A stretch of DNA of 64,000 nucleotides. Origin: an uncultured Acidobacteriota bacterium. Its GTDB lineage: Bacteria; Acidobacteriota; JAQAZP01. Numbering within the stretch: the stretch's first letter is position 1; every line of letters starts with the position of its first letter. The notes under the pieces were generated by a model. That model was not told the origin of the DNA, ran no database searches, and was given only the letters and a program-made list of their open reading frames with translations. Positions 21,735-57,255 of the stretch are shown here, piece by piece. The position numbers and the translations under genes were made by a program. The DNA lies in contig CAWIIB010000009.1 of NCBI GenBank assembly GCA_963836075.1, positions 2,208,311 through 2,272,310 on the forward strand, in the 5' to 3' direction.

Positions 21735-23312
21735 GTGTCCTGGCTAACCGAACATCTGCTCTCCTGGATCGTCTTCCTGCCCCTTGTCGGGGCGGGCCTG
21801 ATCATGCTCATCGGCAGGCAGAACAAGGCGGCCCTGCGCTGGACCGCCGTAATCTGTTCTTTGCTGGTTTTTGTCATCTCGCTGCCCCTCTGGTTCGGCT
21901 TTGACGAGACCACCGCGTCGATGCAGTTCGTCGAGCTGGCCGACTGGGTGCCCGCCCTGGGCATCAGCTACCACCTGGGCGTTGACGGTATCAGCCTGTT
22001 GCTGATCCTGCTCACCACCTTCATGACTCCGCTGACCCTGCTGAGCACCTTCAGCGCGGTGGACAAGCACCTCAAGGAGTTCCTGGTGGTGCTGCTGATG
22101 CTGGAGACGGGGATGCTCGGCGCCTTCGTGGCCGTCGATCTCTTCCTCTTCTACATCTTCTGGGAAGCGATGCTGATCCCGATGTGTTTCATCATCGGTA
22201 TCTGGGGCGGCCCCCGCCGGGTCTATGCGGCGGTGAAGTTTTTCCTCTACACCCTGGTGGGCTCCCTGCTGATGCTGGTGGCCATCCTGACCATGTATTT
22301 TCTCCAGCAGCAGGCCTCGGGCATCCCGACCTTCGACATGGCCACGCTGATGTCGACACCGGTGCCGGCCCATATGCAGATGTGTCTCTTCCTGGCCTTT
22401 GCCCTGTCCTTTGCCATCAAGGTGCCGATGTTCCCCTTCCACACCTGGCTGCCCGATGCCCACGTGGAAGCCCCCACTGCGGGCTCCGTGATCCTGGCTG
22501 CCATCCTGCTGAAACTGGGAACCTACGGCTTCATCCGTTTTGCCATACCGTTCTTCCCCGAGTCTTCCGGGGTTCTCACGACACTGTTTGCCTCGCTGGC
22601 CGTCATCGGCATCATCTATGGCGCCCTGGTGGCCATGGTGCAGAAGGACATCAAGAAGCTGGTGGCCTACTCCAGCGTCAGCCACCTGGGCTACGTCATG
22701 CTGGGCCTTTTCGCCCTCACCGTGCAGGGCGTGGAAGGCGGTATCTTCGTCATGCTGGCCCACGGCCTCTCCACCGGCGGGCTGTTCCTCATTGTCGGCA
22801 TGATCTACGAGCGGAGGCACACCCGGATGATCGCCGACTTCGGCGGCCTGGCCAGGCAGATCCCGGTGTTCACCACCATCTTCATGATCGTGACCCTGGC
22901 CTCCATCGGCCTGCCCGGACTGAACGGTTTCGTCGGCGAGATCCTGGTTCTGGTGGGCACCTTCACCTCCACCTCGATGAACCACGCCAAGGCTTTCACC
23001 GCCCTGGCCGCCACCGGGATGATCCTCGGCGCGGTCTACATGCTCTGGATGTTCCGCCGGGTGATGTTCGGGCCGCTGGAGCGCGAGGAGAACAAGACGA
23101 TCAAGGACTTAAGCGTCCGCGAGCTGGTGGTGATGATCCCGATCCTGATCATGATCGTCTGGATGGGTGTCTACCCCGGGCCGTTTCTCCGAAAAATGGA
23201 TGTCTCGGTGGCCGCATTTGTCGAGCGGGTGAAGGTGACCAGGCAGGCCACGGCCGAGATGAAAGCGACCGGACAGCCCCGGGGAGAGAGTGAAGCGAGG
23301 AGTGAGCAGTGA
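21735..23312 (+). CDS. nuoM: NADH-quinone oxidoreductase subunit M
   Basis: 525 aa, GTG start; ...FHTWLPDAHVEAPTAGSVILAAILLK... Confidence 0.9.
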   Translation: MSWLTEHLLSWIVFLPLVGAGLIMLIGRQNKAALRWTAVICSLLVFVISLPLWFGFDETTASMQFVELADWVPALGISYHLGVDGISLLLILLTTFMTPLTLLSTFSAVDKHLKEFLVVLLMLETGMLGAFVAVDLFLFYIFWEAMLIPMCFIIGIWGGPRRVYAAVKFFLYTLVGSLLMLVAILTMYFLQQQASGIPTFDMATLMSTPVPAHMQMCLFLAFALSFAIKVPMFPFHTWLPDAHVEAPTAGSVILAAILLKLGTYGFIRFAIPFFPESSGVLTTLFASLAVIGIIYGALVAMVQKDIKKLVAYSSVSHLGYVMLGLFALTVQGVEGGIFVMLAHGLSTGGLFLIVGMIYERRHTRMIADFGGLARQIPVFTTIFMIVTLASIGLPGLNGFVGEILVLVGTFTSTSMNHAKAFTALAATGMILGAVYMLWMFRRVMFGPLEREENKTIKDLSVRELVVMIPILIMIVWMGVYPGPFLRKMDVSVAAFVERVKVTRQATAEMKATGQPRGESEARSEQ

Positions 23313-24766
23313 ACTTTGATCTCTACGCCATAATGCCGATCCTGATCCTGGTGATCTGGGGCTGTGCGCTATTACTGCTCGAAGCCGCCTCCAGAAACAT
23401 GGCCCGCGCCGTGGCCGGGCCGCTGACCCTGGTGGCGGCCCTGGTCTCCGGCATCGGCTGCATCTGTCTCTGGGCCAACCCGCCCGGATCCCAGTTCGGC
23501 GGGATGCTGCTGCTGGACAAGTTCAGTCTGTTCTTTGGTGCCCTGCTGGCCTTCATCCTGGCCATGACCGTGCTGATCTCCGGCGGCTACCTCCGCCGGG
23601 AGGAGAACAACCACAGCGAGTATTACGCTCTGCTCTGCTTCACCGTATCCGGCGCCATGCTGATGGTCGGAGCAGGGGACATGCTGGTGCTCTTCCTCGG
23701 CATCGAGCTGCTCTCCATCCCGCTTTACATCCTTGCCGGGTTCCAGCGGAGAAAGCCCGAGTCCACCGAAGCCGCACTGAAATATTTCCTACTGGGCGCC
23801 TTTGCCACCGGCTTTCTGCTCTACGGCATCGCCCTGGTCTACGGCGCCACCGGCCAACTTGGCCTGCACGCCATCGCCGACCACCTGATCGCCAACGGTA
23901 TCACCACCGAGGAACCGATCCTGCTCATCGGCATCATCTTCCTGGTGGTGGCCTTCGGCTTCAAGGTTTCGGTGGTGCCCTTCCACATGTGGACCCCGGA
24001 TGTCTACCAGGGTGCGCCCACCTCGATCACCGCCTTCATGGCCGCCGCGCCCAAGGCTGCTGGCCTGGCCGTGGTTCTCCGTGTGTTCATCACCGCCTTC
24101 CCCACCGAGCAGGAGTTCGTCTCGGCCATGGTGGTGGTGCTGGCCGTGCTGACCATGACCGTGGGCAACGTGCTGGCCCTGGTGCAGGACAACATCAAGC
24201 GGATGCTGGCCTACTCGTCCATCGCCCACGTGGGCTATCTCCTGGTCGCGGTGGTGGCCGGCAACGAGCTGGGCATGCGGTCGGTCCTCTTTTACAGCGT
24301 GGTCTACGCCCTGATGAACATCGGCGCCTTCGGCCTGGTGATCATGCTCGGCAAGAAGGGGGAGAGCGATCTCGACATGTCCTCCTACGCCGGTGCCGGT
24401 TTCCGCTTTCCGCTGATCGGCCTGGCCATGGCCCTCTTCATGTTCTCCCTGGCCGGCATTCCGCCCACCGGCGGTTTTTTCGGCAAGTTCTACATCTTCT
24501 CCGCCGCGGTCAAGGCCGGGTATATCCCGCTGGCCATCATCGGCGTATTGAACTCCGCCCTCTCGCTCTACTTCTACCTCCGGGTGGTGGTCTACACCTA
24601 CATGCGGGAACCCGACTCCCGGGACGCCGTGGCCGACACCCTGACCCTCTCCCCGGGCCTGATCACCGCGGTGGTCATCGCCTGCCTCGGCACCCTCTAC
24701 CTCGGCCTGCAGCCCGGCGGCCTGCTTGGCCTGACCGGTGAGGCGATTCGGTCGTTGGTGGGGTAG
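23309..24766 (+). CDS. nuoN: NADH-quinone oxidoreductase subunit N
   Basis: 485 aa; ...FHMWTPDVYQGAPTSITAFMAAAPKAAGL...; GTG start overlapping nuoM stop. Confidence 0.9.
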   Translation: MNFDLYAIMPILILVIWGCALLLLEAASRNMARAVAGPLTLVAALVSGIGCICLWANPPGSQFGGMLLLDKFSLFFGALLAFILAMTVLISGGYLRREENNHSEYYALLCFTVSGAMLMVGAGDMLVLFLGIELLSIPLYILAGFQRRKPESTEAALKYFLLGAFATGFLLYGIALVYGATGQLGLHAIADHLIANGITTEEPILLIGIIFLVVAFGFKVSVVPFHMWTPDVYQGAPTSITAFMAAAPKAAGLAVVLRVFITAFPTEQEFVSAMVVVLAVLTMTVGNVLALVQDNIKRMLAYSSIAHVGYLLVAVVAGNELGMRSVLFYSVVYALMNIGAFGLVIMLGKKGESDLDMSSYAGAGFRFPLIGLAMALFMFSLAGIPPTGGFFGKFYIFSAAVKAGYIPLAIIGVLNSALSLYFYLRVVVYTYMREPDSRDAVADTLTLSPGLITAVVIACLGTLYLGLQPGGLLGLTGEAIRSLVG

Positions 24767-24769
24767 GCT

Positions 24770-26580
24770 GGCTCACCCTGGCGGCACACCGTCAACCGCA
24801 GTTTCCACCAGTCTCCTCATAATCCTGCTGACTGACGCTCAAGCTGATCGGCCCCGATCTTGCTCCTCCTGGTCTGTATGGGCCAGGACAAACAGAGCAT
24901 CTACCGACCCCGGCGGCCGGAGCGGACCGACCTGCACCTGGCGGTTCGCGAGAACCTGGAGTTGTTCCTCGAAACCTACGACGAGCGGTTCCTCGACCGG
25001 CACGGCCCTCTGACCGACCGTGCCCGCCGCACGCTGGAGGAGTATCTTCGCTGCGGGATCCTTGCCGCGGGGTTCGCCCGGGTCCGCTGTGGCGACTGCG
25101 GCCACGAGCAACTGGTGGCCTTCTCCTGCCAGCTCCGAGGTGTCTGCCCTTCATGCCAGCAGAAACGGGCCGAGATCCTTTGCCGCTTCGTCATCGACGA
25201 GGTGATCGAGCCGGTGGAGCACCGCCAGCTGGTCTTCGTGCTGCCCAGGCACCTCCGCCGCCCGTTCTACCGCGACCGCCGACTGCTCACCGGCCTGTGC
25301 CGCTCAGCGGTGGAGGCGACCCACACGTTCTACCGGGCCGGCCTGGGCCGTGACGATCTGAGAGTGGGGATGGTGGTGGTTCCCCAGCGGTTCGGCGACC
25401 GGGTCAATCCGCACATTCACCTGCATGCCCTAGCCACCGACGGCGCTTTCGACCGGGACGGACTGTTCCACCCGATGCCCTTCGGCATGCAGGGGGACAT
25501 CGAGGTGCTGGAGCGGCTGTTCGCCCGGCGGGTGCTCGACCTGATGGTGAGGCGTAAGCGGCTGAGCGTGCGCCTTCGCGACGAGATGCTGGACTGGGAG
25601 CATAGCGGGTTCTCGGTGGACGGCTCGGTCAGGGTGGCGGTGGGGGATTACGGGCGGCTCAAGCGGCTGGTGCGCTACCTGGCCCGTCCGGCGGTGTCGG
25701 CGGAGCGGGTGTCCTACGACCGGTCGAACGGCACGGTCACGGTGCGCAGTTCGAAGAAGGTGCGGGGCGTCCGTCCGGTTGTGGCCCAATACGACGGGCT
25801 GACCTTCCTGTCCCTTCTGGCGCTGCAGGTGCCGCCGCCCGGGGTGCACATGGTGCGCTACTACGGTCACTACTCGGTGCGGAGCCGGGCGGAGCGGAGG
25901 AAGAGGTCCGGGGAGGGGACGGCCGGCATCCGCAGCGAAAAGCCGCCGCCGGCAAGCGAGCGGCGGCGGAGGTGGGCGGAGCTGATCCGCCTGGTATTCG
26001 AGGTGGACCCTCTGCGCTGTGATAAGTGCGGGGGCGGTATGAAGGTCGTCTCGTTCATCTCGACGGCGCAGTCCGAGGTGATCCGCCGCATCCTCGAGCA
26101 CCTGGGGGTGAGCACCGTCGTTCCCCGGGCCCACGGGCCGCCGGGGTGGGCTGCCACAAGCGAGCGGCACGTTCAGGCCGAGCTCTCCAGGGACGAGGAG
26201 GACTGCTCGCAGGCGCCGCCAGGTTGGGACGAGTGGGAGCCGGCGTGAGGCCTTCGGTCAGTGACGGGCTGCAGGGAGAGGTATGTCCTGATGACAGATT
26301 AAACGGGGGGCATCGTCGGCATGGCGTAAGGCCACCAGGGATTGACCTCGAACGGCGGGGGAGTGGAGAAACGGCAGGGGGAAAATGACCGGATCATGGA
26401 CCTGAAGGGAGGGGAGATTTCTTGACGCCGGGAAAGGAAATCCCTACTCTTCTCACCTGGTTGATGATCGAGGTGGAGGCGCCCTGATGCTGGGCTCACT
26501 GGTGGGCAACGCACTGCTGCTGGTGCCGGTGACCCGGGCGACCCACCGGCACCGCTGAGCTGGTCGTCTACCCGCTATTT
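24770..26580 (+). mobile_element. IS91-family insertion sequence (ends not resolvable by eye) inserted immediately downstream of nuoN
   Basis: Transposase CDS plus flanking non-coding DNA between nuoN stop (24766) and FG-GAP gene start (26646). Confidence 0.4.
24860..26248 (+). CDS. IS91-family transposase (HUH Y2 rolling-circle type) with N-terminal zinc-binding domain
   Basis: CGDCGHEQLVAFSCQLRGVCPSCQQKR zinc ribbon; HIHLHALATDGAF; C-terminal ...CDKCGGGMKVVSFISTAQSEVIRRILEHLGV typical of IS91/ISCR transposases; alternative ATG 24878. Confidence 0.85.
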   Translation: MLLLVCMGQDKQSIYRPRRPERTDLHLAVRENLELFLETYDERFLDRHGPLTDRARRTLEEYLRCGILAAGFARVRCGDCGHEQLVAFSCQLRGVCPSCQQKRAEILCRFVIDEVIEPVEHRQLVFVLPRHLRRPFYRDRRLLTGLCRSAVEATHTFYRAGLGRDDLRVGMVVVPQRFGDRVNPHIHLHALATDGAFDRDGLFHPMPFGMQGDIEVLERLFARRVLDLMVRRKRLSVRLRDEMLDWEHSGFSVDGSVRVAVGDYGRLKRLVRYLARPAVSAERVSYDRSNGTVTVRSSKKVRGVRPVVAQYDGLTFLSLLALQVPPPGVHMVRYYGHYSVRSRAERRKRSGEGTAGIRSEKPPPASERRRRWAELIRLVFEVDPLRCDKCGGGMKVVSFISTAQSEVIRRILEHLGVSTVVPRAHGPPGWAATSERHVQAELSRDEEDCSQAPPGWDEWEPA

Positions 26581-26645
26581 TCATGGATAATCACTCAGCG
26601 GAACGCGGTATACTGCAGCGAACCAGCCAGGAGGGACGCCTGACC

Positions 26646-29600
26646 ATGAAGCTCGCATCCATCGGATCTGTTCTGCTCTTCCTGCTCACCGCTGTCCCGC
26701 AGTTGACGCACGCCACAAGGCTTTTCGACACGAGGATCGACCATTTCGTCGGTGCTTACCCGTTCGCCATCGACAGCAGCGATCTTGACGGTGACGGGCA
26801 CCTCGACCTGGTGGTGGCCCTCCACGGCTCGGACGGCATCTCCGTTCTTCTCGGCCTGGGGAACGGTGAATTCAGACCCGCCGTGCCATATGTGACCGAC
26901 GACAATCCCACGTCCGTGGCTGCCGCCGATTTCAACGGTGACGGTCACCCGGATGTGGCGGTGGCCAACCGGTATGGGCACAACATGTCCGTCCTCCTGG
27001 GCCAGGGGGACGGTATCCTGTCGCCGCCGGAGCACTACACCACCGGGTCCTCGCCCGAAGCTGTGATCGTCTCCGACCTTGACGGCGACACGGTGCCCGA
27101 CCTGGCCGTGGCCTGCCATTCGAGCCACGCGGTGTCAATCCTGCTCGGCAACGGGGACGGGAGCTTCCAGGCCGAGGTCCGCTACGACACCGGCTGGTAT
27201 CCCATCGATCTCGCCGTGGGGGACGTCAACGGTGACGGTGTGCCGGATCTGGCCACGGCCAGTTCGGCAGACCGCAGCGTGTCCATCCTCCCTGGCGCCG
27301 GCGATGGTTCCTTCGGGCCGCCCCAGGCCATCGAGATCGCCCAGGGCGTTTACGCCCTCGCCCTCGGTGATCTCGATGGGGACGACGTGCCCGACCTGGC
27401 CATCACAACGCACGTTTCGAGCACGAATTCGGGCGAGATCCAGATCTGGCTGAACACCGGTGGCGGCGCGTTCCAATGGAACCAGGAATGGGCGCACGGC
27501 GTCTTGCTCTACGACACCGTCATCGAGGACCTGGACGGCGACGGCTATCGGGATCTGGCGGTCACCGACATCGGATTCGCAAATGCTGAAGGCCGGGTCA
27601 CGGTGTACGCCGGCCGCGGTGACGGCACCGTGGAAGCGGCCTTAGGTCGATCATATTGGGCCGGCCTGTCCACCAATGCCGTCCACCCCGCCGATATCGA
27701 CGGCGACGGCCGTCTGGACCTGGCCGTATCGAACGCCACCAGCAGCGACATCTCCGTACTGCTGGGCAGAGCTGACGGCGCCTTCCACACCGCCCCGACG
27801 TACGGCGCGGGGTATGGCCCGAGGACCTCGGCCATTGCCGACCTCAACGGCGACAGCGTTCCCGACATCGCCGTTTCGTCATATGCCAACGGGCTCATCA
27901 AGATCCTGATCGGCGAGGGGGACGGCACCTTCCTGCCTGCCGGCCAGGTCACCGGGGCCGGCGGAAAACCGTCGGCCATCGTTGCCGACGACCTGAACGG
28001 CGACGGCATTTCCGACCTGGCCTTCACCACCCCGCTGGACGACAGCTGCTCAGTGACATTGGGCAATGGAGATGGAACGTTCCAGCCGGCGACGGACTTC
28101 GGAACCGGGGGATATCCCGACGCAATGGTGATCAGTGACCTGAACAACGACACCATCCCGGACCTGGCCGCAGCCAACATGGCCAGCGACTCGATCTCGG
28201 TGCTCCTCGGTGCGGGGGACGGCAGCTTTCTTCCGGCGCTCCACGCCGGCGCCGGTGCCGAACCGGCCGGCCTGGCCGCCGGGGACCTGGATGGCGACGG
28301 GGCCACCGACCTCGCGGTTACCAGTTCCACCGGGCATGACGTCTCCGTGCTGATCGGCAACGGTGATGGCACATTCCGGACGGCGGTGGGCTACGCGACC
28401 AGCCAGACCCCGGCCGGTGTGGCCATTGCCGATCTCAACGGCGACGGCCACCCGGACCTGGCGGTGGCCTGCCAGAACAGCAACAGGACATCGGTGCTCC
28501 TCGGCCACGGCGACGGTACCTTCCGGGAGGCGGTCGATCACTACACGCCCCACGGCCCGATATCGGTGACCGCCACCGACCTCGACCTCGACGGCTCGCT
28601 CGATCTGGTGCTGGCCTGCACAGTACGGTTCACCGTCGCCGTCCTCCGGGGACAGGGTGACGGCTCATTCATGGAAGCCGAACAGTACCGGCGTCGGGTT
28701 TCATCCGTACCATGTCTCCGCCGGCGACCTGGACCGGGACGGCCACCCGGACCTGGTGGCGGTGAACCGGTACAGCCATGATGTCTCGGTGTTGATCAAC
28801 GCCGGGAGCCCGGGGATGCTGGTGACCGGCCCTGGTCCGGGATTGGCGAACGAACCGCTGGTCAGGGTCTTCCCGCCGGTGGAGAACGCATTTCACGTTT
28901 CCGCGTTTCAGGCATATGGCGCCCCCCACTTTGGCGTGGGCGTGGCGGCCGGTGATCCAGACGGCGACGGCATCGACGTCATCATCACCGGCGCCGGCCC
29001 GGGGGCGGTTTTTGGCCCCCACATCCGCGCATTCATGGTCGACGGCACACCGGACCCCGGCATCAACTTCCTGGCCTACGGCACCAACAAGTTCGGCGTC
29101 AATGTGGCCGCCGGCGACCTGGATGGCGACGGGATCGACGAGATCGTCACCGGCGCCGGCCCGGGGGCTGTGTTCGGGCCCCACGTCCGGGGCTGGAACG
29201 TGGATGGCGGTACGGCCACGGCCATGCCCGGGGTCAGCTACTTCGCCTACGGCACGCTGAAACACGGGGTCAACGTGGCGGCCGGCGACCTGGACGGCGA
29301 CGGTTACGATGAGATCATCACCGGCGCCGGCCCGGGGGCGGTGTTCGGGCCCCATGTCCGGGGCTGGAACGTCGACGGCGGCACGGCCGCGGCCATGTCC
29401 GGGGTCAGTTTCCTGGCCTACGGCACCAACAGGTGGGGGGTCAACGTGGGTACCGGCGACATCGACGGGGACGGCATCGACGAGATCCTCACCGCGCCCG
29501 GTCCCTCGGCCCTCTTCGCCTCGCACATCCGGGGCTGGAATGCGGATGGCAGTTCCGCCACACCGCTGGCCGGCTGCAGCTTCCTCGCCTGGTCGGCAGC

Positions 29601-29817
29601 GCTGTCCCGCTACGGCGCCCGGGTGGCCTCGGGTGTCGACCTCGACAGCGACGGGTACCAAGAGATCCTGGTGGGCGCCGGCCCGGACCCCGCCACCGGC
29701 TCACCGGTGCGGGTCTTCGACTACCAGGATGGCCAGGTCAGCGAGGACTTCTCCCTCACCGCCTACCCCCAGGGCTGGAATCACGGGGTGAACGTGGCCG
29801 CGGGTCTGTTCCGGTAG
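26646..29817 (+). CDS. FG-GAP/VCBS repeat-containing secreted protein (~1057 aa) interrupted by a 1-nt frameshift near 28690-28700 (ORFs 26583..28781 and 28657..29817 are one gene)
   Basis: Signal peptide MKLASIGSVLLFLLTAVPQLTHA; >15 FG-GAP units (DLDGDGHLDLVVA...), C-terminal GAGPGAVFGPHVRGWNVDGG repeats; frames join as GQGDGSFMEAEQY | (G)VGFHPYHVSAGDLDRDGHPDLVAV. Confidence 0.8.
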
Positions 29818-29959
29818 ATCAAGACTTGGATTCGGCAAGCCGTGTGTCTGGAGCGGGACCCCACGGAGCAGCCCCTCCGTGCTCAGGTCTTCATCGATGT
29901 CCGGCCAATGGATACCGACCCCTGTCCCTCCTGTAAATTACGTACTACCTGATAACGTT

Positions 29960-31300
29960 GAACTTAGCGCTTCAGGAGTGTACCATCGATGAATGATGTA
30001 CAAACTCCTCAAAACCATCTATTCAGCTCTGAGAACCCAACGAACTTTGGCCCTGGAGAACCTGGCGCTCAGGCAACAACTTGCCATCCTCCGTCGAACG
30101 ATGAAACGCCCTCGATTGACGGAAACCGATCGACTGTTCTGGGTCTTCCTTTCCAGGATATGGCGAGACTGGGCCCAGGTGCTCGTTGTCGTCAAGCCTG
30201 AAACCGTCATTTCCTGGCATCGGGTGGGCTTCAAGCTCTTCTGGCGATTGAAAAGCCGGCGGAGGAACCGGGGCCGGCCTCGAGTTACACGTGAGATCAG
30301 GGATCTGATCAGAAGAATGTCCCGAGAAAACCCGACGTGGGGCGCTCCAAGAATCCATGGAGAACTGCTCAAACTGGGAATCGATGTGTCTCCGGCATCC
30401 GTGTCGAAATATATGGGTCGCCACCGGAAACCTCCATCCCAAACTTGGAGAACCTTCCTGCGCAACCATATGGGCGACATGGCCTCCATTGATTTCTTCA
30501 CCGTGCCCACGGCGACGTTCCGGATTCTCTACGCCTGTATCATTCTGACCCACTCTCGACGCCTCGTTGTACATTTCAACATCACCGATTCCCCTTCGGC
30601 AGCCTGGACTGGTCAGCAGATCATCGAGGCATTTCCCTGGGATTCAGCTCCGCGGTATCTGCTCCGCGATCGTGATGGGAAATACGGCCATGAATTTGTC
30701 AGCCGCGTCCGGTCAATGGGCATTGAAGAAGTGAAGACTGCCCCACGATCACCCTGGAAAAACTGTTTCGTCGAGAGGCTCGTTGGATCCATACGCCGAG
30801 ATTGCCTCGACCATGTCATCATCATCAACGAACAGCACCTCCGGCGAATCCTGAAAGAGTACTTCCTGTATTACCACCGGTCTCGAACGCATCTATCGCT
30901 CGATAAGGATTGTCCGGAGCCGCGAGCTGTAGAATCACCGAAGATGGGCAAAGTGATCGCACTGCCGCAGGTCGGTGGACTCCACCATCGCTACACCCGT
31001 CGGGCCGCCTGATCTGGTCGTGGACTTCAAAGCTTCTACATCAGATAGAACTGTAGGATCGTTTGTTCCGAATCGTTTTCTTTGGTCAGGCAACACTTCA
31101 TGAAGTGGCGATCCGTTGGTCTCGATGATTTCCCCCATCGATGATGCTTCAATTCTTCACTCTGAATGATCCCTCCGTCCATTCGTTCGACACCATCAGC
31201 GAGTCAGATGGATTTTGCAGGAGCCACAGGTATCCTGAATCATGTACACCGTACACAGCGAGGCGCGGATTCCCATATCCGCGCCTCATTGATTCTGCTC
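29960..31300 (+). mobile_element. IS481-like insertion sequence (approximate limits); lower-GC block between FG-GAP gene and flotillin gene
   Basis: Transposase gene, local GC drop, palindromic/CCATCGATGA repeats near both ends (29982-29998, 31133-31149), 11-bp stem hairpin 31259-31286. Confidence 0.35.
29993..31012 (+). CDS. DDE transposase/integrase (rve integrase core; IS481-like family)
   Basis: 339 aa; N-terminal HTH region, WGAPRIHGELLKLGIDVS, DFFTVPTATFRILYACIILTHSRRLVVHFNITDSPSAAWTGQQIIEAFP (DDE core). Confidence 0.8.
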   Translation: MMYKLLKTIYSALRTQRTLALENLALRQQLAILRRTMKRPRLTETDRLFWVFLSRIWRDWAQVLVVVKPETVISWHRVGFKLFWRLKSRRRNRGRPRVTREIRDLIRRMSRENPTWGAPRIHGELLKLGIDVSPASVSKYMGRHRKPPSQTWRTFLRNHMGDMASIDFFTVPTATFRILYACIILTHSRRLVVHFNITDSPSAAWTGQQIIEAFPWDSAPRYLLRDRDGKYGHEFVSRVRSMGIEEVKTAPRSPWKNCFVERLVGSIRRDCLDHVIIINEQHLRRILKEYFLYYHRSRTHLSLDKDCPEPRAVESPKMGKVIALPQVGGLHHRYTRRAA

Positions 31301-31321
31301 TAACCCGTTTAAACCAGTTTT

Positions 31322-32680
31322 TTACAGAATTGGTTCTTCAGGTTTTGTACTTTCAGGGACTCTTTCCGACTTCTCAGCTTTGACGCCCATCTGGCCCAGC
31401 ACGGCTTCGCCAAGCGGGGTCTGGGCAAATGCCTCCACCATCGAGGCGAGGTTGGTTCCGCCCTTGGAAGAGAAGAGGTCCATCGCCCGGTTCATGCCCT
31501 CGTTGGCATTGCCGGCGTTGGCGATGACCTTGACGTCAGCGGTCTGGAGCGCCTGGGCCTGTTCCTGGCCGACGATGATGTGGGCCTTGATCGCTTCCAG
31601 CATGGCCAGATACTGCTGGTAGCCGTCGTTGGCGCCGATCTCCTTGGCCAGCTCGATCTGGGCCATCACCGGCGCCAGCTTCATCGCCTTCTCGGCATCG
31701 GCACGGGCCACACCAACCACCCGGATGGCCTCGGCTTCCTTCTGCTGGGCTTCCAGTTCGCCCTCGGCGCGGATGATACGCGTTTGCTTGTCCTGCTCAG
31801 CGGTCACCACCTGGCGGTCCTTCTCGATCTCTTCCTGCTTGACCTGCTCGACCCGGCGCACGTCCATGGTGCGCTCCTGGGTCAGCTTTTCCTGCGTGAG
31901 CACCTCCTGGCGCGACTGCTGCAGGGCGATGCCGACGGCCTTGTCCTTTTCGGCCGTGCGCTGGCCGACGGCTTCGGCCGCTTCCTGGTCGCGCACATCG
32001 ATGACCTGCTGGGACTCGATCTCGGCGGTTCTGGCTTTCTTGGTGTTCTCCGCGACCTCGGTGCGTGACTCCATCTCGATGAAGGAGGTCTTTTTGGCCA
32101 TGATGTTGCTGACGTTGCGCGAGCCCTCTCCGTCACGGATGTCCATCAGCTCCATCGACTTTACCGACCGGACGCCCCACTCCTTGAGCTGGTCGCCAAC
32201 CTCCTCGGTGAAGGCGTTGCCGAATTTGGCCCGCTCGAGCATGATGGAGTCGATGACGTCGTCGGCCAGCACCTTCCTCACCGCGCCCTGGACGATCAGT
32301 GAGAGTTGCTCTTCCAACTCCTTGACGTTCACCACACGGCGCGCCGCCACTGCCGTGTCCTCGATGCGGAAGAACGCCGTCACGTCGACGATGAACGGCA
32401 CACGGTCCCGGTCATACGCCTCGTAGGCCAGCAGCGAGAGGTCGAAGTTGCTCACCGGGAGCCTGATCACCGTGACACCCAGCCCCGGAATCCACGAGGG
32501 CCACCGGAAGTAGACGTTGCCTGCTTTCTGGCCCGTGCCGTAGGGGGTGGTCTTACGGCGCGACTGGACCACATGGACCATGTTGGTGCTGACCACGGTG
32601 CGCATCATGAATGATGCGATGATGATGATGAACACAAAACCGACCGCACCGAGAACAATGGCTGGAGTCAACATAAACAT
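31322..32680 (-). CDS. Flotillin-like SPFH/band-7 domain protein (FloA/YqiK-like)
   Basis: N-terminal TM MFMLTPAIVLGAVGFVFIIIIASFMM, SPFH domain, long EA-rich coiled coil (AEIESQQVIDVRDQEAAEAVGQRTAEKDKAV...). Confidence 0.85.
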   Translation of the reverse strand: MFMLTPAIVLGAVGFVFIIIIASFMMRTVVSTNMVHVVQSRRKTTPYGTGQKAGNVYFRWPSWIPGLGVTVIRLPVSNFDLSLLAYEAYDRDRVPFIVDVTAFFRIEDTAVAARRVVNVKELEEQLSLIVQGAVRKVLADDVIDSIMLERAKFGNAFTEEVGDQLKEWGVRSVKSMELMDIRDGEGSRNVSNIMAKKTSFIEMESRTEVAENTKKARTAEIESQQVIDVRDQEAAEAVGQRTAEKDKAVGIALQQSRQEVLTQEKLTQERTMDVRRVEQVKQEEIEKDRQVVTAEQDKQTRIIRAEGELEAQQKEAEAIRVVGVARADAEKAMKLAPVMAQIELAKEIGANDGYQQYLAMLEAIKAHIIVGQEQAQALQTADVKVIANAGNANEGMNRAMDLFSSKGGTNLASMVEAFAQTPLGEAVLGQMGVKAEKSERVPESTKPEEPIL

Positions 32681-33851: not shown

Positions 33852-33859
33852 GGCGAGGG

Positions 33860-34314
33860 CGCGATCAACAGGGCCCGACACGCCGAACCCCGACCAGGAG
33901 GATGCCGACGAGGACGGTGTTGGTGATGCCTGTGACACGGCCTCCGCCACCCTGGCCGCCACTCTGCGCTGTCTGCCCGATGCGGGGACCCTGCCCTTCA
34001 CCACCACCATGACGGTGGAACTGGCCAACCTGTATGGCGGGCAAACCCGCCGTCTGGCTGGACGTCTCGAACTGGACCTGGCCGGCGGGCAGCACTACGG
34101 CAGCTGGCGGGCCGGCTGGAGCAACATTGGCCCTTCAAACAGCTACCTCACCAGTTGGGGGCAATTCATCCCCGCCCTGGGATCGCTGGTGGGTGTCAAC
34201 ACCTTCACCCTGCTGGCCGAGGATGTCACACCGGCCCCGTACAACCAGCCGCCCTACCCGGCAGCCGGCGACCAGGCCAGCGACAACTGCACGGTGACCG
34301 GAATCCTTCCCTGA
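33860..34314 (+). pseudogene. Orphan copy of the conserved ~115-aa C-terminal domain (CTVTG-type CTD) without an N-terminal catalytic part or signal peptide; possibly a gene remnant (ATG-initiated ORF 34009..34314)
   Basis: Frame 1 reads ...DQEDADEDGVGDACDTASATLAATLRCLPDAGTLPFTTTMTVELANLYGGQTRRLAGRLELDLAGG...WRAGWSNIG...LGSLVGVNTFTLLAEDVTPAPYNQPPYPAAGDQASDNCTVTGILP, homologous to C-termini of four neighbouring genes; starts right after prx stop with no start codon. Confidence 0.45.
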
Positions 34315-34786: not shown

Positions 34787-34829
34787 GCGGAGGCCGCCGC
34801 GGGGCGGCCCCCGAGTCGTCCCGACCCGG

Positions 34830-37055
34830 TCAGGGGGCGTGGGCCACCACCACGTTTGTCTTGGTGCACGTACTTCCCGAAGGCGGGTAGGGCGGCTGGT
34901 TGTATGGGGCCGGCGTTACATCCATGACGGACAACATACTGGTGTTGCTGCCGATGACGCTCCCCAAACTCGGGATGGTCACCGGGAACTGGGTGTAGTA
35001 GAAGGAACCCGGGGCTACGTTGGTGTAGCCCGCTCTCCAAGGGTTGAAGAGGGTGCCGTTGGCCAGGGTCAGGGAGATCTGCCCGGCGATCCGGCGGGTG
35101 AGGGCCGCGCCTCCGCTGAGGGTGTTGGTCATGGTGATCTGGTGCAGCACCTGGAAGGGCACTGTACCCGAGGAGGGCGTGCAGTTATAACTGCAGGTAA
35201 GGGTCGAGGTGCTCACGGCGCCGAACCCGGTGGCCCGGAGGCCGTAGTTGCCGTAAACCCCGCTGTCGGCGTAGAAGGTGCCTCCGATATAGGTCATGGT
35301 CCGTCCGTTCCAGGGTGAGCTGGTGTCCGCGCCGATGTTCGAACCGTTGTAAATGATGTAGAGCACCCAGAAGTCGCCCGAAGCGATCTGGATGTTCAGG
35401 CCGGAGACATCCTCGTAGTCCCAGCTATACCCGGTGGCCCCGGTGCTGGTGAGCACCGAGGTGAGAGGGGAGCCCGGCGAACCGCCGCTGTCGGACCAGA
35501 TCTGGTACTGACAGTTCCCGGTGTTCTGATGGATGTGAATCCCCTTCAGGTCGAAGGGGTAGGCGCCTGGCGTCATTCGCACCGCCCAGCCGTAACCCTC
35601 GGCCCAGTTCCAGCCGGTCTCGATGGACCCGTCGTCATAGACCAGGTATTCCCACAGGTCGCCCGGCTGGATGTCCATCTGCATGTCGCCGGCCGAAGCG
35701 GCGATATTGGTGATCGAAACCCCGGAGGCGCTGCCGTCATGCCGGTTGCTCGACGGCGTGGTGGAGGCGGTGAACTGGTCCACCGTGCTGTAGGGATAGA
35801 TGTCGCCGCTGTCACCGTAGGGCATGAAGGCTGAGCAGTCGAGGTCGAAGTTGCCGTCCGGCTGCTCCAGGGAGACCAGGTAGTGCGAGCTGGACGTGCA
35901 GTACGGCGCGTCCTCGCAGTCATTGCCGGTGGCGACTTCCTCGTCGATGTGCCAGACCAGCACACCGCCGCCCGGAAGGTTGCTGTCGAAACCGTAGCTG
36001 TTATCGCGGTGGGAGACCAGCAGGTACTCGGAACCCCGCCAGTTCATCCCGATCTTCAGCACCGTGGCGTTGTCCTCGATCCGCGGCAGCAGCCGGCCGA
36101 CAGCCGGTGAGGCCACCACCGTGGGGGTGAGCCAGCCCATCTGGATCTTGGACCAGGCGCAGAGGTGAGTGGGCTGTTCGGGATCGGCCACCGTGCCGCC
36201 CCATCCGCCGTAGCCCATCAGTCCCCAGACACCGATGCCTGAGCTGAGGGTGTCCATCGGCGGCCCGCAGACGAACCCGGTGTCGTTCAGGTCGGGCAGG
36301 CCTAGCATGTGGCCGAACTCGTGGCAGTACACGCCGATCTTGACGTGGGTCAGCGGCGAGGCGTCCTGCAGTTCCGGAACGCAGAGGTAGGAATCAATGG
36401 TCTTGCCGTCGTAGGACCGTGCCGTGCCGCCCATGGCGCTGATCGAGCTGAGGTGGCTGTGGATATCGTTGGTGTCCAGGCTGGTCTCGTGCCCCTCGCC
36501 GCAGTGCACCACGAAGATCGATTCGGCCACCCCGTCGCCGTCGTTGTCGTACTGGGAGAAATCAACCCCGGCGGTCTCGGCGGCATCCACCGCCTCCTCA
36601 ACCAGCGCGGCCGCGTTCCGGGGGTACGCGCCCCAACCCTGTTGCGCATTGCCGTAATAGGCCCGGGTGTTGGCCGCCGTATACCAGCCCACGCACAGAC
36701 CGGCGAGCTGCAGATTGCCGTACGACACCTCGTTGAAATAGTCGTTCATACTGTGTGGCGACCAGGGGCCGAACACCATGTTGTCAAAGGAGCCGGCCGT
36801 GTAGTTGCTGGTGACGTCCGAGAAACGGATACAGATCACCAGGATGTTGTGCGTTGCCCGCCAGCCCCCGTCGGGGATCCGGGCCGGCTTGTCGATCCAG
36901 GGCGGCTTGACCATCAGCTGCCGCCCATCCAGGGTCAGTCCGGGATTGGCCGGATCCAGAGCCCTGGGATCAACCGTGATCGCCTGGGCCAGAAAGCCGG
37001 GGAAGGAAAAGAGCGTGCACAACAAAAGCACCAACAGAAAATACTTGATATTCAT
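34830..37055 (-). CDS. Secreted M6-like (immune inhibitor A-type) zinc metallopeptidase with conserved C-terminal CTVTG-type domain
   Basis: Signal peptide MNIKYFLLVLLLCTLFSFPGFLAQA; HEFGHMLGLPDLNDTG (HExxH...zinc site); C-terminal ~115 aa CTD (...WRAGYTNVAPGSFYYTQF...DVTPAPYNQPPYPPSGSTCTKTNVVVAHAP). Confidence 0.8.
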   Translation of the reverse strand: MNIKYFLLVLLLCTLFSFPGFLAQAITVDPRALDPANPGLTLDGRQLMVKPPWIDKPARIPDGGWRATHNILVICIRFSDVTSNYTAGSFDNMVFGPWSPHSMNDYFNEVSYGNLQLAGLCVGWYTAANTRAYYGNAQQGWGAYPRNAAALVEEAVDAAETAGVDFSQYDNDGDGVAESIFVVHCGEGHETSLDTNDIHSHLSSISAMGGTARSYDGKTIDSYLCVPELQDASPLTHVKIGVYCHEFGHMLGLPDLNDTGFVCGPPMDTLSSGIGVWGLMGYGGWGGTVADPEQPTHLCAWSKIQMGWLTPTVVASPAVGRLLPRIEDNATVLKIGMNWRGSEYLLVSHRDNSYGFDSNLPGGGVLVWHIDEEVATGNDCEDAPYCTSSSHYLVSLEQPDGNFDLDCSAFMPYGDSGDIYPYSTVDQFTASTTPSSNRHDGSASGVSITNIAASAGDMQMDIQPGDLWEYLVYDDGSIETGWNWAEGYGWAVRMTPGAYPFDLKGIHIHQNTGNCQYQIWSDSGGSPGSPLTSVLTSTGATGYSWDYEDVSGLNIQIASGDFWVLYIIYNGSNIGADTSSPWNGRTMTYIGGTFYADSGVYGNYGLRATGFGAVSTSTLTCSYNCTPSSGTVPFQVLHQITMTNTLSGGAALTRRIAGQISLTLANGTLFNPWRAGYTNVAPGSFYYTQFPVTIPSLGSVIGSNTSMLSVMDVTPAPYNQPPYPPSGSTCTKTNVVVAHAP

Positions 37056-37224
37056 GGCCGGTCCTCCATTTATTACAGGGATATGATCTGCGTTCAGTTA
37101 GGTAGTGCGAGGAAGGGAAAGTAATCTCACAACAAAATATAGGTATTTTTCTTTTATGACGCCATAATTTTCTGATGTTTTTGGTTTTCGCTTCTGTGGG
37201 TCACAAAGTGACTGATACTGTTGA

Positions 37225-37310
37225 GGTTATCATTGCTTGAAGTCGTCACGCCTGAAACCGACATCTTCTGGAATCGAATGGGTTTCAAGCTCTTCTGGCG
37301 GATGCCCCCG
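37225..37310 (+). mobile_element. Short remnant of the IS481-like transposase gene (nucleotide similarity to 30196-30265)
   Basis: gtcgtcacgcctgaaaccgacatcttctggaatcgaatgggtttcaagctcttctggcggatg vs gtcgtcaagcctgaaaccgtcatttcctggcatcgggtgggcttcaagctcttctggcgattg; peptide VVTPETDIFWNRMGFKLFWR vs VVKPETVISWHRVGFKLFWR. Confidence 0.5.
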
Positions 37311-37430
37311 CAATTCCCACTCCGAATTGTCACTATTGTAATTTGGTTGGACCCATCAGCACGTCGGTTGGATATTCAGGAGCAACACCAGTGGGTTGAC
37401 ACAGAAGGAGGCTGTATTGGCATCTCTAGT

Positions 37431-37462
37431 TCGAGTCCGGCCCGGGGAGCCAGCATTCGGCA
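37431..37462 (+). other. tRNA 3'-end-like fragment (T-loop/T-stem/acceptor/CCA format) - possible att-site remnant
   Basis: TTCGAGT-CCGGC-CCGGGGA-G-CCA fits T-loop + T-stem 3' + acceptor 3' + discriminator + CCA but no matching 5' half upstream. Confidence 0.3.
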
Positions 37463-37643
37463 CATGAAATTCGCTGCAGGGCACACGAGGTATAATCTAA
37501 TATCGGTATATTCAGGAAATTCCCATGAATCGTGACCAGTTAGAGGTAAAACCATGACAATGATTCAGATGGTATCCGGCAACAACTGGTGGTAGAGGAA
37601 TCTAATAGGCGGGGGTGTTACCTGGAATGGAGGAGAACAGGAA

Positions 37644-39164
37644 ATGAAATATCAATCATATATCATCGTCCTTCTTGTTACCCTGATGTTTGCCATGGTG
37701 GGAAGTTACGCCAGAGCCCAATGGAATCCTCCCGAGCAGATTACCTACAACAACAAAGATGAACTGATCACGAACGGAAGTCTTGCCATCGATGGCAACG
37801 ATATCCTTCACATGGCCTGGGCACAGTACGATGGCATGGGAAGCAGCAAGCAGATCGTCTACATGGAGGGCTCCAGCGGAAACTGGGGGGATATCGTGGA
37901 GATTACCCCCAGCAGCCTTGACTGCACGACTCCGAACCTCGCCGTCCACTCGAGTGGAGACTCCCATCTCGTGTGGCTGCAGGACAACGGGAGCGCCGGC
38001 GAGCTTTTCTATGCCACCAATTCCTCGGGAACCTGGATCACGGAACGGATCACCAACAACACGACAACCGACATCGGTCCGGTTGTTGGTGTCGACGGCG
38101 CAAACAGCCCGCACATTGCCTGGGCTGGATACGATCCGGCCTCCGGCGAAGGCAAGATCTTCTATGGAAAGCGTTCCGGAGGGATCTGGAACAAACAGGT
38201 CCTCGAGAATTCTTCTCTCGGTGATTACTGGACCGGCGCCTATCCAAAGATCTCGGTCTCCCCTGCGGGGATTGTCCAGATCACCTACCGCGGGGGCGGA
38301 TACGGCTACTACCATATCCATCAGGCGACCAATGCGACCGGGGACTGGACGATTCAGATCCTCCATAGCACGAATCTCAATGATTTTTCCTCTTCCGTGC
38401 GCACCGATCCTTTCAACACCTGCTATCTCGCTATGAGCGGAGATTACGGATGGGGAATGCCCGGTGAGGTCTATTACCGAGAAAGCAGCGATCAGGGACT
38501 CACCTGGTCCGCGGCCGAACTGGCCTCAGGTTATCACGGAACATCGAATCCAGTGCTCGAAGTGGACGGGGAGGGTCACGCCCATATCGCCTGGGAGGAA
38601 GTCAGCGGCAGCATTTACACGGGAACGATCTTTTATTCCACCAATCGAGGCGGCGCCTGGACTACCGAACAGATGACGGGAAGCAGTGACTACTTCAGCC
38701 CCTCTCTCGTGATGGACGGTTCGGGGAGGGTTCACATGATCTACCTGCAGGAAATCCATCCCCAGCCCTCCGAGATATTCTACCTGACCAATGCGACATC
38801 GACCGTGACCGCGGACATCACCTGCACACCCTCATCGGGCACCTTGCCGTTCAGCACCTTCATGACGATGACGATGACCAATCTCCACACCGATCGGCGC
38901 AGGATCGCCGGCCGGCTCGGCATCACCCTGGCCAACGGCACCAGTTACGGCACCTGGCGGGCCGGGTACACCAACATTGGTAGCGGGGAAAGTTACGTCA
39001 CCTCCTGGGTCCAGAGCATCCCGGCCCTGGGCTCGCTGGTCGGGGACAACGTCTTCTCGCTCACCGCCGAGGATGTGACCCCGGCGCCGTACAACCAGCC
39101 GCCCCACCCGCCGGCGGGCGACACGGATACGGCCCAATGCACGGTGACCGGCGTGGCGCCGTAA
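37644..39164 (+). CDS. Secreted beta-propeller (BNR/sialidase-like repeat) protein with C-terminal CTVTG-type domain
   Basis: Signal peptide MKYQSYIIVLLVTLMFAMVGSYARA; recurring blade motif (...HIAW....G.IFY.TN.GG.W...); CTD 38815-39164 ending CTVTGVAP. Confidence 0.75.
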   Translation: MKYQSYIIVLLVTLMFAMVGSYARAQWNPPEQITYNNKDELITNGSLAIDGNDILHMAWAQYDGMGSSKQIVYMEGSSGNWGDIVEITPSSLDCTTPNLAVHSSGDSHLVWLQDNGSAGELFYATNSSGTWITERITNNTTTDIGPVVGVDGANSPHIAWAGYDPASGEGKIFYGKRSGGIWNKQVLENSSLGDYWTGAYPKISVSPAGIVQITYRGGGYGYYHIHQATNATGDWTIQILHSTNLNDFSSSVRTDPFNTCYLAMSGDYGWGMPGEVYYRESSDQGLTWSAAELASGYHGTSNPVLEVDGEGHAHIAWEEVSGSIYTGTIFYSTNRGGAWTTEQMTGSSDYFSPSLVMDGSGRVHMIYLQEIHPQPSEIFYLTNATSTVTADITCTPSSGTLPFSTFMTMTMTNLHTDRRRIAGRLGITLANGTSYGTWRAGYTNIGSGESYVTSWVQSIPALGSLVGDNVFSLTAEDVTPAPYNQPPHPPAGDTDTAQCTVTGVAP

Positions 39165-39435: not shown

Positions 39436-39451
39436 CCCCCCCCCAAAAAAA
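39436..39451 (+). repeat. Homopolymer tract C9-A7 in AT-rich intergenic region upstream of SBBP gene
   Basis: cccccccccaaaaaaa at 39436-39451; region 39290-39790 is ~40% GC versus ~65% flanks. Confidence 0.6.
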
Positions 39452-54106: not shown

Positions 54107-57100
54107 ATGGACATCCGCGGTACGTCTCTTCTTTGCTTCGCACTATTGATATCTGCTTCGTTCCCGCCACAACGGCCGGGCCACTGCTGTTCAACACGAG
54201 GGTCGAATTCCCGGTGGGTATCTTTCCTTCCTGCGTTGCCCTGGCCGACCTGGATGGTGATGGCCGCCAGGACCTGGCCGTGCCGAACCTGGTCAGCGAC
54301 GACGTCTCGGTGCTGCTGGGCAACGGTGACGGCACCTTTCAGGAGGCGGTGAACTACGGGGTGGATGATTCCCCTCTTGCGGTGGCCATCGGTGACCTGG
54401 ACGCGGACAGCCATCCGGACCTGGCGGTGGTGAACTATACCGACGGACTGGTCTCAGTGCTGCTGGGCCGGGGCGACGGCACTTTCGAGAACGCGGTGAA
54501 CTACGAGAGCGCCCACTCGGCCAACTCGGTGGCCATCGGCGATCTGGACGGGGATGGCCATCCGGACCTGGCGGTGGCCAACGGCGGTTTCCAGGCGGTT
54601 GCGGTTCTACTGGGCAATGGCGACGGCACCTTTCAGAGCAGGGTGAACTACAGCGCCGGTCTGGGGCCGGCATCGGTGGTCATCGGTGACCTGGACAACG
54701 ACGGTATCCCGGACCTGGCGGCGGCGAATTCCAGCCTCGACTCGGTTGCGGTGCTGCTGGGCAACGGGGACGGCACCTTCCAGACCCGTGTCCTCCACGA
54801 GACCGGGGACAGCCCGGTGGCGGTGGCCATCGTCGACCTGGAGAACGACAACTTCAAAGATCTGGTGACGGCGAGTAGAATCGGTAACAACATCTCGGTG
54901 CTGGCGGGCAACGGGGACGGCACCTTCCAGGCTGCGGTGAACTACCCGGCCGGGGACGATCCCGAAGCGCTTGCCGTCGGTGACGTGAATGACGACGGCC
55001 AGGCGGATGTGGTGGTTGCCAATCTGTCCAGCTCTGACGTCTCCATACTGCAGGGCAACGGGGATGGCACATTGCAGGTTGCCCGGCAATTCCCCATCGG
55101 CCGGGCCCCCGTTTCGGTGGCCATCGGCGACCTGGACGGCGACGGAAACCAGGACCTGACCGCGGCGACTTCCAGCTACAACTATGTCACGGTTCTGCGG
55201 GGATACGGGGACGGCACCTTTGCCACCGCAGCTGAATACGGTGTCGGCGGTCTCCCTCAATCAGTGGCCGCGGGCGAGCTGGATGGTGACGGGCGTGTGG
55301 ACCTGGTGGTGGCCAACCCCGACGAGGGCACCGTCTCGGTGCTTGCCGGCCAGGGGAACGGCAGTTTCGGCTCCGCGGTACAGCACGGTGCCGGTGCCGG
55401 GGCCTGGTCGGTGGCCATCGTCGACCTCGATGGCAACGGCAACCCGGACCTGGTCACGGCGAACTACAACGGTGACGACGTCTCGGTGTTGATGAACACG
55501 GGTGGCGGCGCCTTCGCCGCACCCGTGAATTACGGGGCCGGCAGCGGCCCATTCTCGGTGGCCGGCGATGACTTTGACAATGATGGCCACCAGGACCTGG
55601 TGGTGGCGAATTACTACGACAACAACGTGTCGGTGTTGCTGGGCAACGGTGACGGCTCCCTTCAGACGGCAAGTGACTTCGCGGTTCAGGCTTTTCCCAC
55701 GGCGGTGGTCACCGGAGACCTGAATAAAGACGGTGACCCGGACCTGGCCGTGGCCAACACGCTCGGCGACTCTGTTTCGGTACTTCTGGGTCTCGGGGAC
55801 GGCGCCTTCCAGGCGGCCGTAAACTACGGTGCAGGGAACAACCCGTATTCGCTGGCCCTCAATGACCTCGATGGCGATGGCGCCCTGGACCTGGCCGTGG
55901 CCAATAACGGCAGCGATTCCGTATCGCTGTTGCTGGGCCAGGGCGACGGCACCTTGCAGTCCGCGGTGTACTATGACACCGGCGTCGGGCCTGTCTCGGT
56001 GGCCATGGCCGACCTGGACGGCGACGGCCGGCTGGATCTGGCCGTGGCCAACCTCGACAGCGACAATGTGTCGGTGTTCCCGGGCCTGGGGGACGGCACT
56101 CTGGGGACCGCGGTGCTCTATGGTTGCGGTGAAGATCCCATCTCCATGGTGTCGGGCAACCTGAACGGTGATGGCTATCCGGACCTGGTCACGGCGGACC
56201 AGGACCAGGAGACGGTAACGGTGCTGATCAACGGCACCAGTATCTCGTCCCTTTCATCGCTCTATGTCGGTCCGGGCCCGGCCTACGACAACAGCCCCCT
56301 GGTCCGGCTGTTCCCGCCGTTGCAGGACGCAGCGGCCCAGTCCGAGTTCCCGGCATACGGCGCAACTCATTACGGCGTCAAGGTGAACAGCGGTGACCCG
56401 GACGGTGACGGAGCGGACGAGATCCTCACTGGTGCTGGTCCGGGTGACATCTACGGGCCCCACGTCCGGGGGTTCGAGGTGGACGGCACGCCCGTTCCCG
56501 GGCTCAATTTCCTGGCCTACGGCACGAACAAATACGGCGTGAATGTCGCCGCCGGCGACTTCGACGGCGACGGTTTCGACGAGATCATCACCGGTGCCGG
56601 TCCGGGTGCGGTGTTCGGGCCTCACGTGCGCGGCTGGACTTACAACGGCGGGTCAGGGGTCACTTCATTGCCCGGGGTGAGCTACTTTGCCTACGGCACG
56701 CCAAAGTGGGGAGTGAACGTGGCCGGCGGTGATATCGATGGCGACGGCTTTGACGAGATCGTCACCGGCGCCGGTCCGGGTGCGGTGTACGGCCCCCATG
56801 TGCGCGGCTGGAACGTGGACGGCGGTGCGGCGGCAGCCATACCAGCGGTGAGCTACTTCGCTTACGGCACACTGAAGTTCGGGGTCAATGTCAGCTGCGG
56901 CGATGTGGATGGCGACGGTATTGACGAGATCGTCACCGGCGCCGGTCCGGGTGCGGTGTTCGGGCCCCACGTGCGCGGCTGGAACTATGACGGGTCCGCG
57001 GTCACTTCGCTGCCCGGCTTCAGTTTCTTTGCCTGGCAGACCGAACCGCTCCGCTTCGGGGTCAATGTCTTTGCCGGAACCGACCTGGATGCCGACGGCC

Positions 57101-57255
57101 GTGACGATCTGCTGGTGGGCCGCGGGCCGGATCCCACCGCGGACAGTGAGGTGAAAGCGTTCTCCTACAACGGGTCGGCCGTGAGCCAGCTCTTTTCGCT
57201 GGACGCATTTCCGGGCCTGACCCACGGGGCCAACGTGGCGGCGGGAAAGAACTAA
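54107..57255 (+). CDS. FG-GAP/VCBS repeat-containing secreted protein (~1045 aa), paralog of 26646..29817; N-terminus may contain a frameshift (signal peptide in frame of ATG 54107, body in frame of TTG 54133)
   Basis: AAGGAGA RBS 8 nt before ATG 54107 giving MDIRGTSLLCFALLISASF signal; body ORF 54133..57255 with >15 FG-GAP units and C-terminal GAGPGAVFGPHVRGWN repeats. Confidence 0.8.

Follow-up and report, generated by a model that had tools for sequence, protein, structure and literature searches.

A probable gene-turnover hot spot directly downstream of nuoN in an uncultured Acidobacteriota bacterium

How did a gene for a large FG-GAP/VCBS repeat protein come to lie between two insertion sequences (ISs) directly downstream of the nuo operon? 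The question is raised by a 64-kb stretch of contig CAWIIB010000009.1 from an uncultured Acidobacteriota bacterium (the window, to which all positions refer unless another locus is named), in which nuoN is followed by an IS91/ISCR-type element, a frameshifted FG-GAP gene, a DDE element and a Band_7 gene. An earlier interpretation made without database searches (the sequence-only reading) had taken the order of IS91 element, cargo and second IS to suggest that the FG-GAP gene was carried in. The present analysis points to a different answer. The variable block of ~6.6 kb after the nuo operon (24767-31365) is probably, at roughly 60%, a hot spot of gene turnover in which three unrelated units arrived or changed independently.

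Relatives were identified by a protein search with NuoN, which yielded four at 88-92% identity; the contigs of these four were compared with the window by DNA. A NuoN scan of genome contigs, with at most 51% identity among the matches listed (segments up to 55%), was not used for synteny. Throughout the nuo operon the relatives and the window are collinear, with 86-89% DNA identity over ~11.4 kb. In three of them similarity ends at the nuoN stop codon, namely at 24765 (L120), 24762 (L121) and 24767 (L122). In L120, the closest relative, a PRiA4_ORF3 gene follows nuoN and similarity returns at 31366, inside the Band_7 gene. In L121, nuoN is followed by one gene of unknown type and then by DUF2207 and LemA genes. 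The corresponding segment of L122 (12010-21458) looks like a defence island, with genes for an HD-domain protein, an SNF2 helicase and an Eco57I-like protein. The accessory block that the sequence-only reading had placed downstream of the nuo operon is borne out by these breaks, and the relatives carry different DNA after nuoN rather than the same gene order minus the IS elements.

Replication of IS91-family elements proceeds from oriIS, downstream of the transposase gene, to terIS, upstream of it (PMC6218425, PMC13393415, PMC13181058, PMC5737581). Loci L124 to L128 match the window across the boundary between nuoN and the IS91 element, with 32 of 33 positions identical at 24768-24800 and similarity extending to 24926. 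Segment 11459-13959 of L124 comprises a mini-IS91 of ~380 bp with both ends (left end, internal piece and oriIS motif), a gene of 341 aa and a further IS91, truncated at the 5' end, that has an oriIS of its own; no FG-GAP gene is present at this nuoN-IS91 locus. The layout of IS, gene and IS recalls ISCR1 complex structures. The L124 fragments have diverged from the window copy as the chromosome has (78-91% vs 86% identity). Because the junction is shared together with its odd, truncated left end, the IS91 insertion appears to be common to both lineages and old, and because L124 has the same junction but no FG-GAP gene, the insertion is not linked to that gene. The right junctions differ, although both abut CTTN: CCCTACT is followed by CTTC in the window, CCCTATT by CTTA in copy L124-A. 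The DNA to the right of oriIS likewise differs between the window and L124, with the breakpoint exactly at the IS end.

Composition separates the units as well. The GC content at third codon positions (GC3) is 0.89 in nuoN, 0.88 in the IS91 transposase gene, 0.82-0.88 in the FG-GAP gene, 0.80 in its paralog within the window and 0.62 in the DDE transposase gene, and the DDE element as a whole has 53% GC compared to 62-67% in its surroundings. In the GC and codon profile, the DDE element thus stands out and the FG-GAP gene does not. Scans of the window for tRNA genes and for Rfam families were both empty, which argues against a tRNA-linked island, and the window contains neither an integrase nor a tRNA nor direct repeats flanking the block. 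The promoter scan detected nothing. The only match in a search of solved structures was that of a zinc ribbon to ribosomal protein S27e, and neither transposase, searched with two alternative starts each, has an exact protein match.

The first unit is the IS91/ISCR-type element. Its transposase open reading frame (ORF) opens at TTG 24860, 94 nt past the nuoN stop codon. Judging from the sequence, the true start is likely ATG 24878, which is preferred on account of the resulting length of 456 aa, found in all close homologues; in the protein search, homologues of 80-92% identity share it. The protein scores 156.1 bits against the NCBIfam IS91 model (NF033538, cut-off 125) and exceeds the Pfam thresholds of Zn_Tnp_IS91 (66 vs 26.3) and Y2_Tnp (80 vs 20.9). 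The HUH motif that the family requires is present as HIHLH (residues 179-183). In alignments of 16 and 7 sequences, which included ISCR1, other ISCR-type elements and ISPps1, the zinc cysteines, H181, H183 and a single tyrosine in the region of the catalytic motif, Y267, are invariant. Y267 sits in RYLARP, with proline at +4, and is aligned with RYISRP of ISCR1. A Y328-x3-Y332 pair is present but is not conserved in ISCR1 and ISPps1. IS91 proper has two catalytic tyrosines spaced Y-x3-Y, Y249 and Y253 (PMC5714925), and IS91 has been described as Y2 and ISCR as Y1 (PMC10288648). The window transposase, aligned without a canonical Y2 IS91 sequence, looks like the Y1/ISCR type and not the Y2 type. 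Of the IS91-type Y2 transposase proposed earlier, family and ORF position therefore stand, whereas the label Y2, which derives from the Pfam family name, is doubtful given the single invariant Y267.

The N-terminal zinc-binding domain, the HUH domain and a score above the IS91 cut-off are shared with the ISCR elements (ISCR1, ISCR2/ISVsa3, ISCR8/ISPps1) and the IS91 family (IS91, IS801, IS1294), and the single tyrosine in an RY(L/I)xRP motif is common to the window protein and ISCR1. However, the window transposase is only 28-37% identical to any of the named elements, and unlike the known ISCR/IS91 elements, the window element is not linked to integrons or resistance genes.

The extent of the element was set where DNA similarity starts and stops among 38 metagenome loci with relatives of the transposase. 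On the left, terIS side, the window shares the conserved CCGTCAACCGC only from 24789. Five other copies open with GGTTTCCGNTCCGTCAACCG, and next to it comes a palindrome, perfect in L100. The outer GGTTTCCGAT, which contains GTTT or GTTC in other copies, is missing in the window, with ~10 nt lost; the missing GTTT/GTTC would correspond to the terIS cleavage tetranucleotide, and the window palindrome is degenerate. On the right, the conserved TTGACGCCGGGAAAGGAAATCCCTACTC is found at 26422-26449, its end lying 201 bp past the transposase stop codon, and the TTGACGCCGGGAAAGGAAATCCCTAYYC common to more than 10 copies ends at 26449. Beyond this point the copies are unrelated except for a tetranucleotide, CTTC in the window and CTTA, CATC or CGTC elsewhere. 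No target duplication flanks the element. In described elements, oriIS is located downstream of the coding sequence (CDS), next to a target of the CTTG/GTTC type that is not duplicated (PMC13181058, PMC5737581, PMC10288648); one of them has oriIS 167 bp downstream of the CDS (PMC5737581), comparable to the 201 bp seen here. The window element thus resembles the ISCR/IS91 family in its two unlike ends in place of inverted repeats, in the CTTN abutting oriIS and in the lack of a target duplication, and differs from it in the missing outer end of terIS. Folding predictions give hairpins at the two ends whose stability does not exceed that of shuffled sequence (z-scores near 0). The element is modular, with a left leader like that of one subgroup of copies and a coding region and 3' leader like those of others.

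The second unit, the FG-GAP gene, is split into two overlapping ORFs in different frames, 26583-28781 (732 aa) and 28657-29817 (386 aa). The repeat period of 147 nt turns into 148 nt between 28571 and 28719, owing to an extra C near 28689 (28680-28700, in ...CAGTACCGGC...). Deletion of this nucleotide restores a protein of 1056 aa with an exact spacing of 49 aa. In the restored protein, a Sec-type signal peptide is combined with 14 repeats of 49 aa and, at the C-terminus, a module that comprises at least five repeats of ~57 aa, and 18 DxDxD motifs occur at 49- and 57-aa spacing. The first ORF scores 332 bits for FG-GAP_3 and 176 bits for FG-GAP, the second 85 bits for FG-GAP. The earlier description of a ~1057-aa FG-GAP protein is accordingly right about the repeats and wrong about a single ORF. 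The frameshift is either a recent inactivating mutation, making this a pseudogene, or a sequencing error.

Repaired in this way, the protein is 48% identical to, and collinear over 1044 aa with, the paralog within the window, which had been located 24 kb away at 54107..57255 and is confirmed with a slightly later start (Table 1). Its best homologue is 50% identical, none being closer among 5.8 billion proteins, and several contigs carry two to three FG-GAP paralogs each. The nearest homologue lies in L129 (1-19282), a locus from the same metagenome sample as L121 with six FG-GAP-type genes within 19 kb; these six genes indicate a large lineage-specific expansion of the family. Like other FG-GAP/VCBS beta-propeller proteins, the restored protein combines the 14 repeats of 49 aa, bearing DxDxDGxxD, with ~57-aa C-terminal repeats and a Sec signal. 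In contrast to them, it belongs to a lineage-specific family of paralogs of ~1050-1100 aa without a characterised member and is frameshifted here. By its sequence, the gene looks like a divergent member of a family native to, and expanded in, the lineage.

The third unit, the DDE element, is bounded by an imperfect inverted repeat, CCTGTCCCTCCTGTAAA and TTTGCAGGAGCCACAGG, at its termini (14 of 17 positions matching). A copy of 87% identity in metagenome loci L113 and L114 matches the window exactly from 29920 to 31228, and the transposase is 89% identical to the L113 copy over all 339 aa. The catalytic residues as read from the sequence are D167, D226/D228 and E261, with spacings of ~60 and 33-35 residues. 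No target-site duplication is found in the window copy or in the L113 copy, which suggests a later rearrangement at one end of the element. GGATACC (29910-29916) and GGTATCC (31229-31235), reverse complements of each other, flank the window copy; they are absent at the L113 copy and are probably due to chance. In L113 (1249-2559) and L114, the DDE element sits within the 5' part of an IS91 copy, i.e. the two insertion sequences are nested.

The DDE transposase scores 92.2 bits against the IS481 model (NF033577, cut-off 224) and 83 against the IS3 model (cut-off 160). The nearest relatives with an annotation come from Paraburkholderia, Bradyrhizobium and Leptospira (36-58% identity) and bear no more specific name than 'integrase core domain-containing protein', and the top match lies on an unannotated record. 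The element resembles the IS481 family in its single-ORF DDE/rve transposase with N-terminal HTH domains, its length of ~1.3 kb and its TGT...ACA termini with imperfect inverted repeats. It differs from IS481 and IS3 in that the protein falls far under the curated cut-offs and in that a target-site duplication is lacking. Because the score is below the family cut-off, 'IS481-like' denotes resemblance rather than demonstrated membership; the sequence-only reading was correct about a DDE (rve) element of lower GC content, and only its family label falls short.

A remnant of the transposase gene had also been noted at 37225-37310. It is real and slightly larger than described, consisting of a piece from the transposase gene at 37234-37300 (tblastn, 21 aa, 71% identity, E 5e-5) and a piece at 37343-37387 that ends at the right terminus of the DDE element; by blastn, identity is 84% across 67 nt and, for a match of 47 nt that reaches the IS terminus, 79%. 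The relic, the IS91 fragments in L124 at the same site and the DDE element nested in IS91 in L113 confirm the repeated IS activity proposed for this region.

Table 1 Features of the nuoN-Band_7 interval and related features elsewhere in the window
Feature	Coordinates	Strand	Evidence
nuoN (final gene of the nuo operon); fixed left anchor for the variable region	23309..24766	+	TIGR01770 457 bits (cut-off 333)
IS91/ISCR-family insertion sequence, ~1.66 kb; left = terIS side, right = oriIS side	24789..26449	+	DNA similarity to 38 metagenome loci
Intact HUH transposase gene, 456 aa	24878..26248	+	Pfam Zn_Tnp_IS91 and Y2_Tnp; NCBIfam IS91
FG-GAP/VCBS repeat protein gene with signal peptide, frameshifted	26646..29817	+	Pfam; repeat spacing; paralog alignment
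DDE (rve) insertion sequence, 1,306 bp, TGT...ACA	29923..31228	+	Inverted repeats 14/17; L113/L114 copy
DDE transposase gene, 339 aa, apparently intact	29993..31012	+	Pfam rve_3, HTH_32, HTH_21
Perfect hairpin with 11-bp stem between DDE element and Band_7 stop; probably the terminator of the convergent gene pair	31260..31287	.	Inverted-repeat pair listing
Band_7/SPFH (flotillin-like) gene; right anchor	31322..32680	-	Pfam Band_7; L120 similarity (88%) back from 31366
Internally deleted relic of a related DDE element	37234..37387	+	tblastn and blastn
Full-length FG-GAP paralog, 1040 aa, same architecture	54133..57255	+	Pfam FG-GAP_3 394 bits

The turnover hot spot has to be weighed against other histories. 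In the first, the FG-GAP gene would be the ancestral neighbour of nuoN, the IS91 element having inserted between them and the DDE element later, while the relatives lost or replaced the FG-GAP gene. The right IS91 junction with its canonical-looking CTTC target fits such an insertion, as does the host-like composition of the FG-GAP gene, and once the DDE element is taken out, the FG-GAP and Band_7 genes are convergent neighbours of the ordinary kind, ~200 bp apart and separated by a hairpin. All four relatives, however, lack any trace of this FG-GAP gene at the locus, the leader of the gene (26450-26660) has no homologue in the relatives, and no homologue above 50% identity was found. Since independent replacement in four lineages would be demanded, this history is considered unlikely.

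Transport of the FG-GAP gene as IS91 cargo, by one-ended read-through or by ISCR1-like circle recombination at the nuoN IS91 with later loss of the second copy, is more doubtful still. The placement of the gene is suggestive: it starts 134-197 bp beyond oriIS in the orientation of the transposase gene, as in the ISCR1 complex integrons, where captured genes typically lie downstream of oriIS in the same orientation as the transposase (PMC6218425). The eroded outer end of terIS would favour read-through, the order of mini-IS91, gene and truncated IS91 is found at the same anchor in L124, and the DDE element without a target duplication fits a deletion of flanking DNA. The polarity of the process points the other way. 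The promoter and terIS lie upstream of the transposase gene, and a failure of termination carries along DNA beyond terIS (PMC6218425, PMC13393415, PMC13181058). Read-through would thus pass the transposase gene and terIS and mobilise the DNA on the nuoN side, away from the FG-GAP gene on the oriIS side (PMC6218425, PMC13393415).

The ISCR1 route, a circle followed by homologous recombination, requires that the cargo be followed by a further IS copy or by a duplicate of the upstream flank. Within the window, neither a second IS91 match nor a repeat of the nuoN end was found, and at the junctions of the DDE element resemblance to an IS91 remnant or a shared flank does not exceed that of shuffled sequence. 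Directly beyond oriIS, the IS91 copies have no conserved sequence in common, and none of the other copies shares a junction with the window. FG-GAP genes within 2 kb of other IS91 copies (L100, L108, L116) were considered as a sign of association and dismissed as chance, as they lie on the opposite strand at varied distances with unrelated junctions; the three genes in ~108 kb of flanks compare to 2.1-3.4 expected from the density in the window. Together with the L124 locus, the host-like GC3 of the FG-GAP gene and its native paralog family, these observations speak against the cargo interpretation of the sequence-only reading.

A broader variant is regarded as comparably improbable: the IS91/ISCR-like clade might form a fixed platform for gene exchange after the nuo operon, with terIS anchored at nuoN and genes swapped beside oriIS. 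The FG-GAP gene here and the 341-aa gene between two IS91 fragments in L124, both in transposase orientation, may be examples. If so, ISCR-style capture would extend beyond resistance genes to ordinary chromosomal surface-protein genes in an uncultured lineage.

A recent import of the 6.6-kb block in one piece, as an island or composite transposon with one of the two ISs at each border, can practically be dismissed: its absence as a unit from L120, its sharp boundaries at 24766 and 31366 and the IS elements at both ends are outweighed by the unrelated families of these elements (HUH vs DDE), which are not known to cooperate as a composite transposon, by the IS91 junction shared with L124 at chromosome-like divergence (84-91% vs 86% identity), which places IS91 at the site for long, by the sharp internal difference in composition (67% vs 53% GC) and by the lack of an integrase, tRNA or flanking direct repeats.

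For the turnover hot spot, the following order of events may be proposed. An old IS91/ISCR-type element would have inserted just after the nuoN stop codon before the split from the L124 lineage. In that lineage it would have decayed to fragments, while in the window the transposase gene and the oriIS end stayed intact. An exchange of the DNA adjacent to oriIS would then have followed in one lineage or more, with its breakpoint at the IS end. Two routes come into question, homologous recombination of one IS91 copy with another and an adjacent deletion mediated by the IS end and directed onto a new CTTN target; by each of them a resident FG-GAP gene would come to lie beside the IS. Later, the compositionally foreign DDE element would have landed downstream of the FG-GAP gene, in the gap that separates it from the convergent Band_7 gene. 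Last, the FG-GAP gene would have gained its frameshift, unless it was mis-sequenced.

Several points weigh against this history. L120 is the closest relative yet has no IS91 element, so that a simple vertical descent needs a loss or recombination. Element identities and boundaries, synteny breaks, the shared junction and composition are observed, whereas the adjacent-deletion or recombination step, like the order of events, is one that we infer. The ISCR1-like placement of a gene is seen both in the window and in L124, where the 341-aa gene follows the mini-IS91. The source genome was viewed over 64 kb, which limits both the census of IS copies and the estimate of FG-GAP density.

Further accessory DNA is found nearby. 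A second block (34787-44530) lies between a dodecin gene and murJ, which adjoin each other in L121, and contains genes for an M6 peptidase, SBBP/NHL beta-propeller proteins and an FGE-sulfatase-domain protein in addition to the DDE relic. The three genes measured in it (37644-42994) have a lower GC3 of 0.72-0.74. A C-terminal coding module of ~100 aa recurs at 33956-34314, 34876-35096 (minus strand), 38898-39160, 41141-41499 and 42636-42994, at the ends of several genes for secreted proteins, and is also present in the DUF362/TSP_3 proteins of the relatives and in the 341-aa gene of L124. It has no match in Pfam or NCBIfam and could serve as a sorting or anchor domain specific to the lineage. 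At 33854-34314, a DUF362/TSP_3 gene conserved in L120, L121 and L124 is reduced to its last ~460 nt, with ~3.5 kb deleted relative to L120.

The locus is a case of ordinary IS-driven genome plasticity, and both insertion sequences are new members of kinds already known. IS91-mediated gene capture is not demonstrated by the present finding. For annotation, the FG-GAP gene is to be recorded as frameshifted, the IS91-type element as ISCR-like and an old resident, and the DDE element as newer, with defined ends. Five related genomes with five different contents after nuoN mark the site as a probable hot spot of gene turnover.

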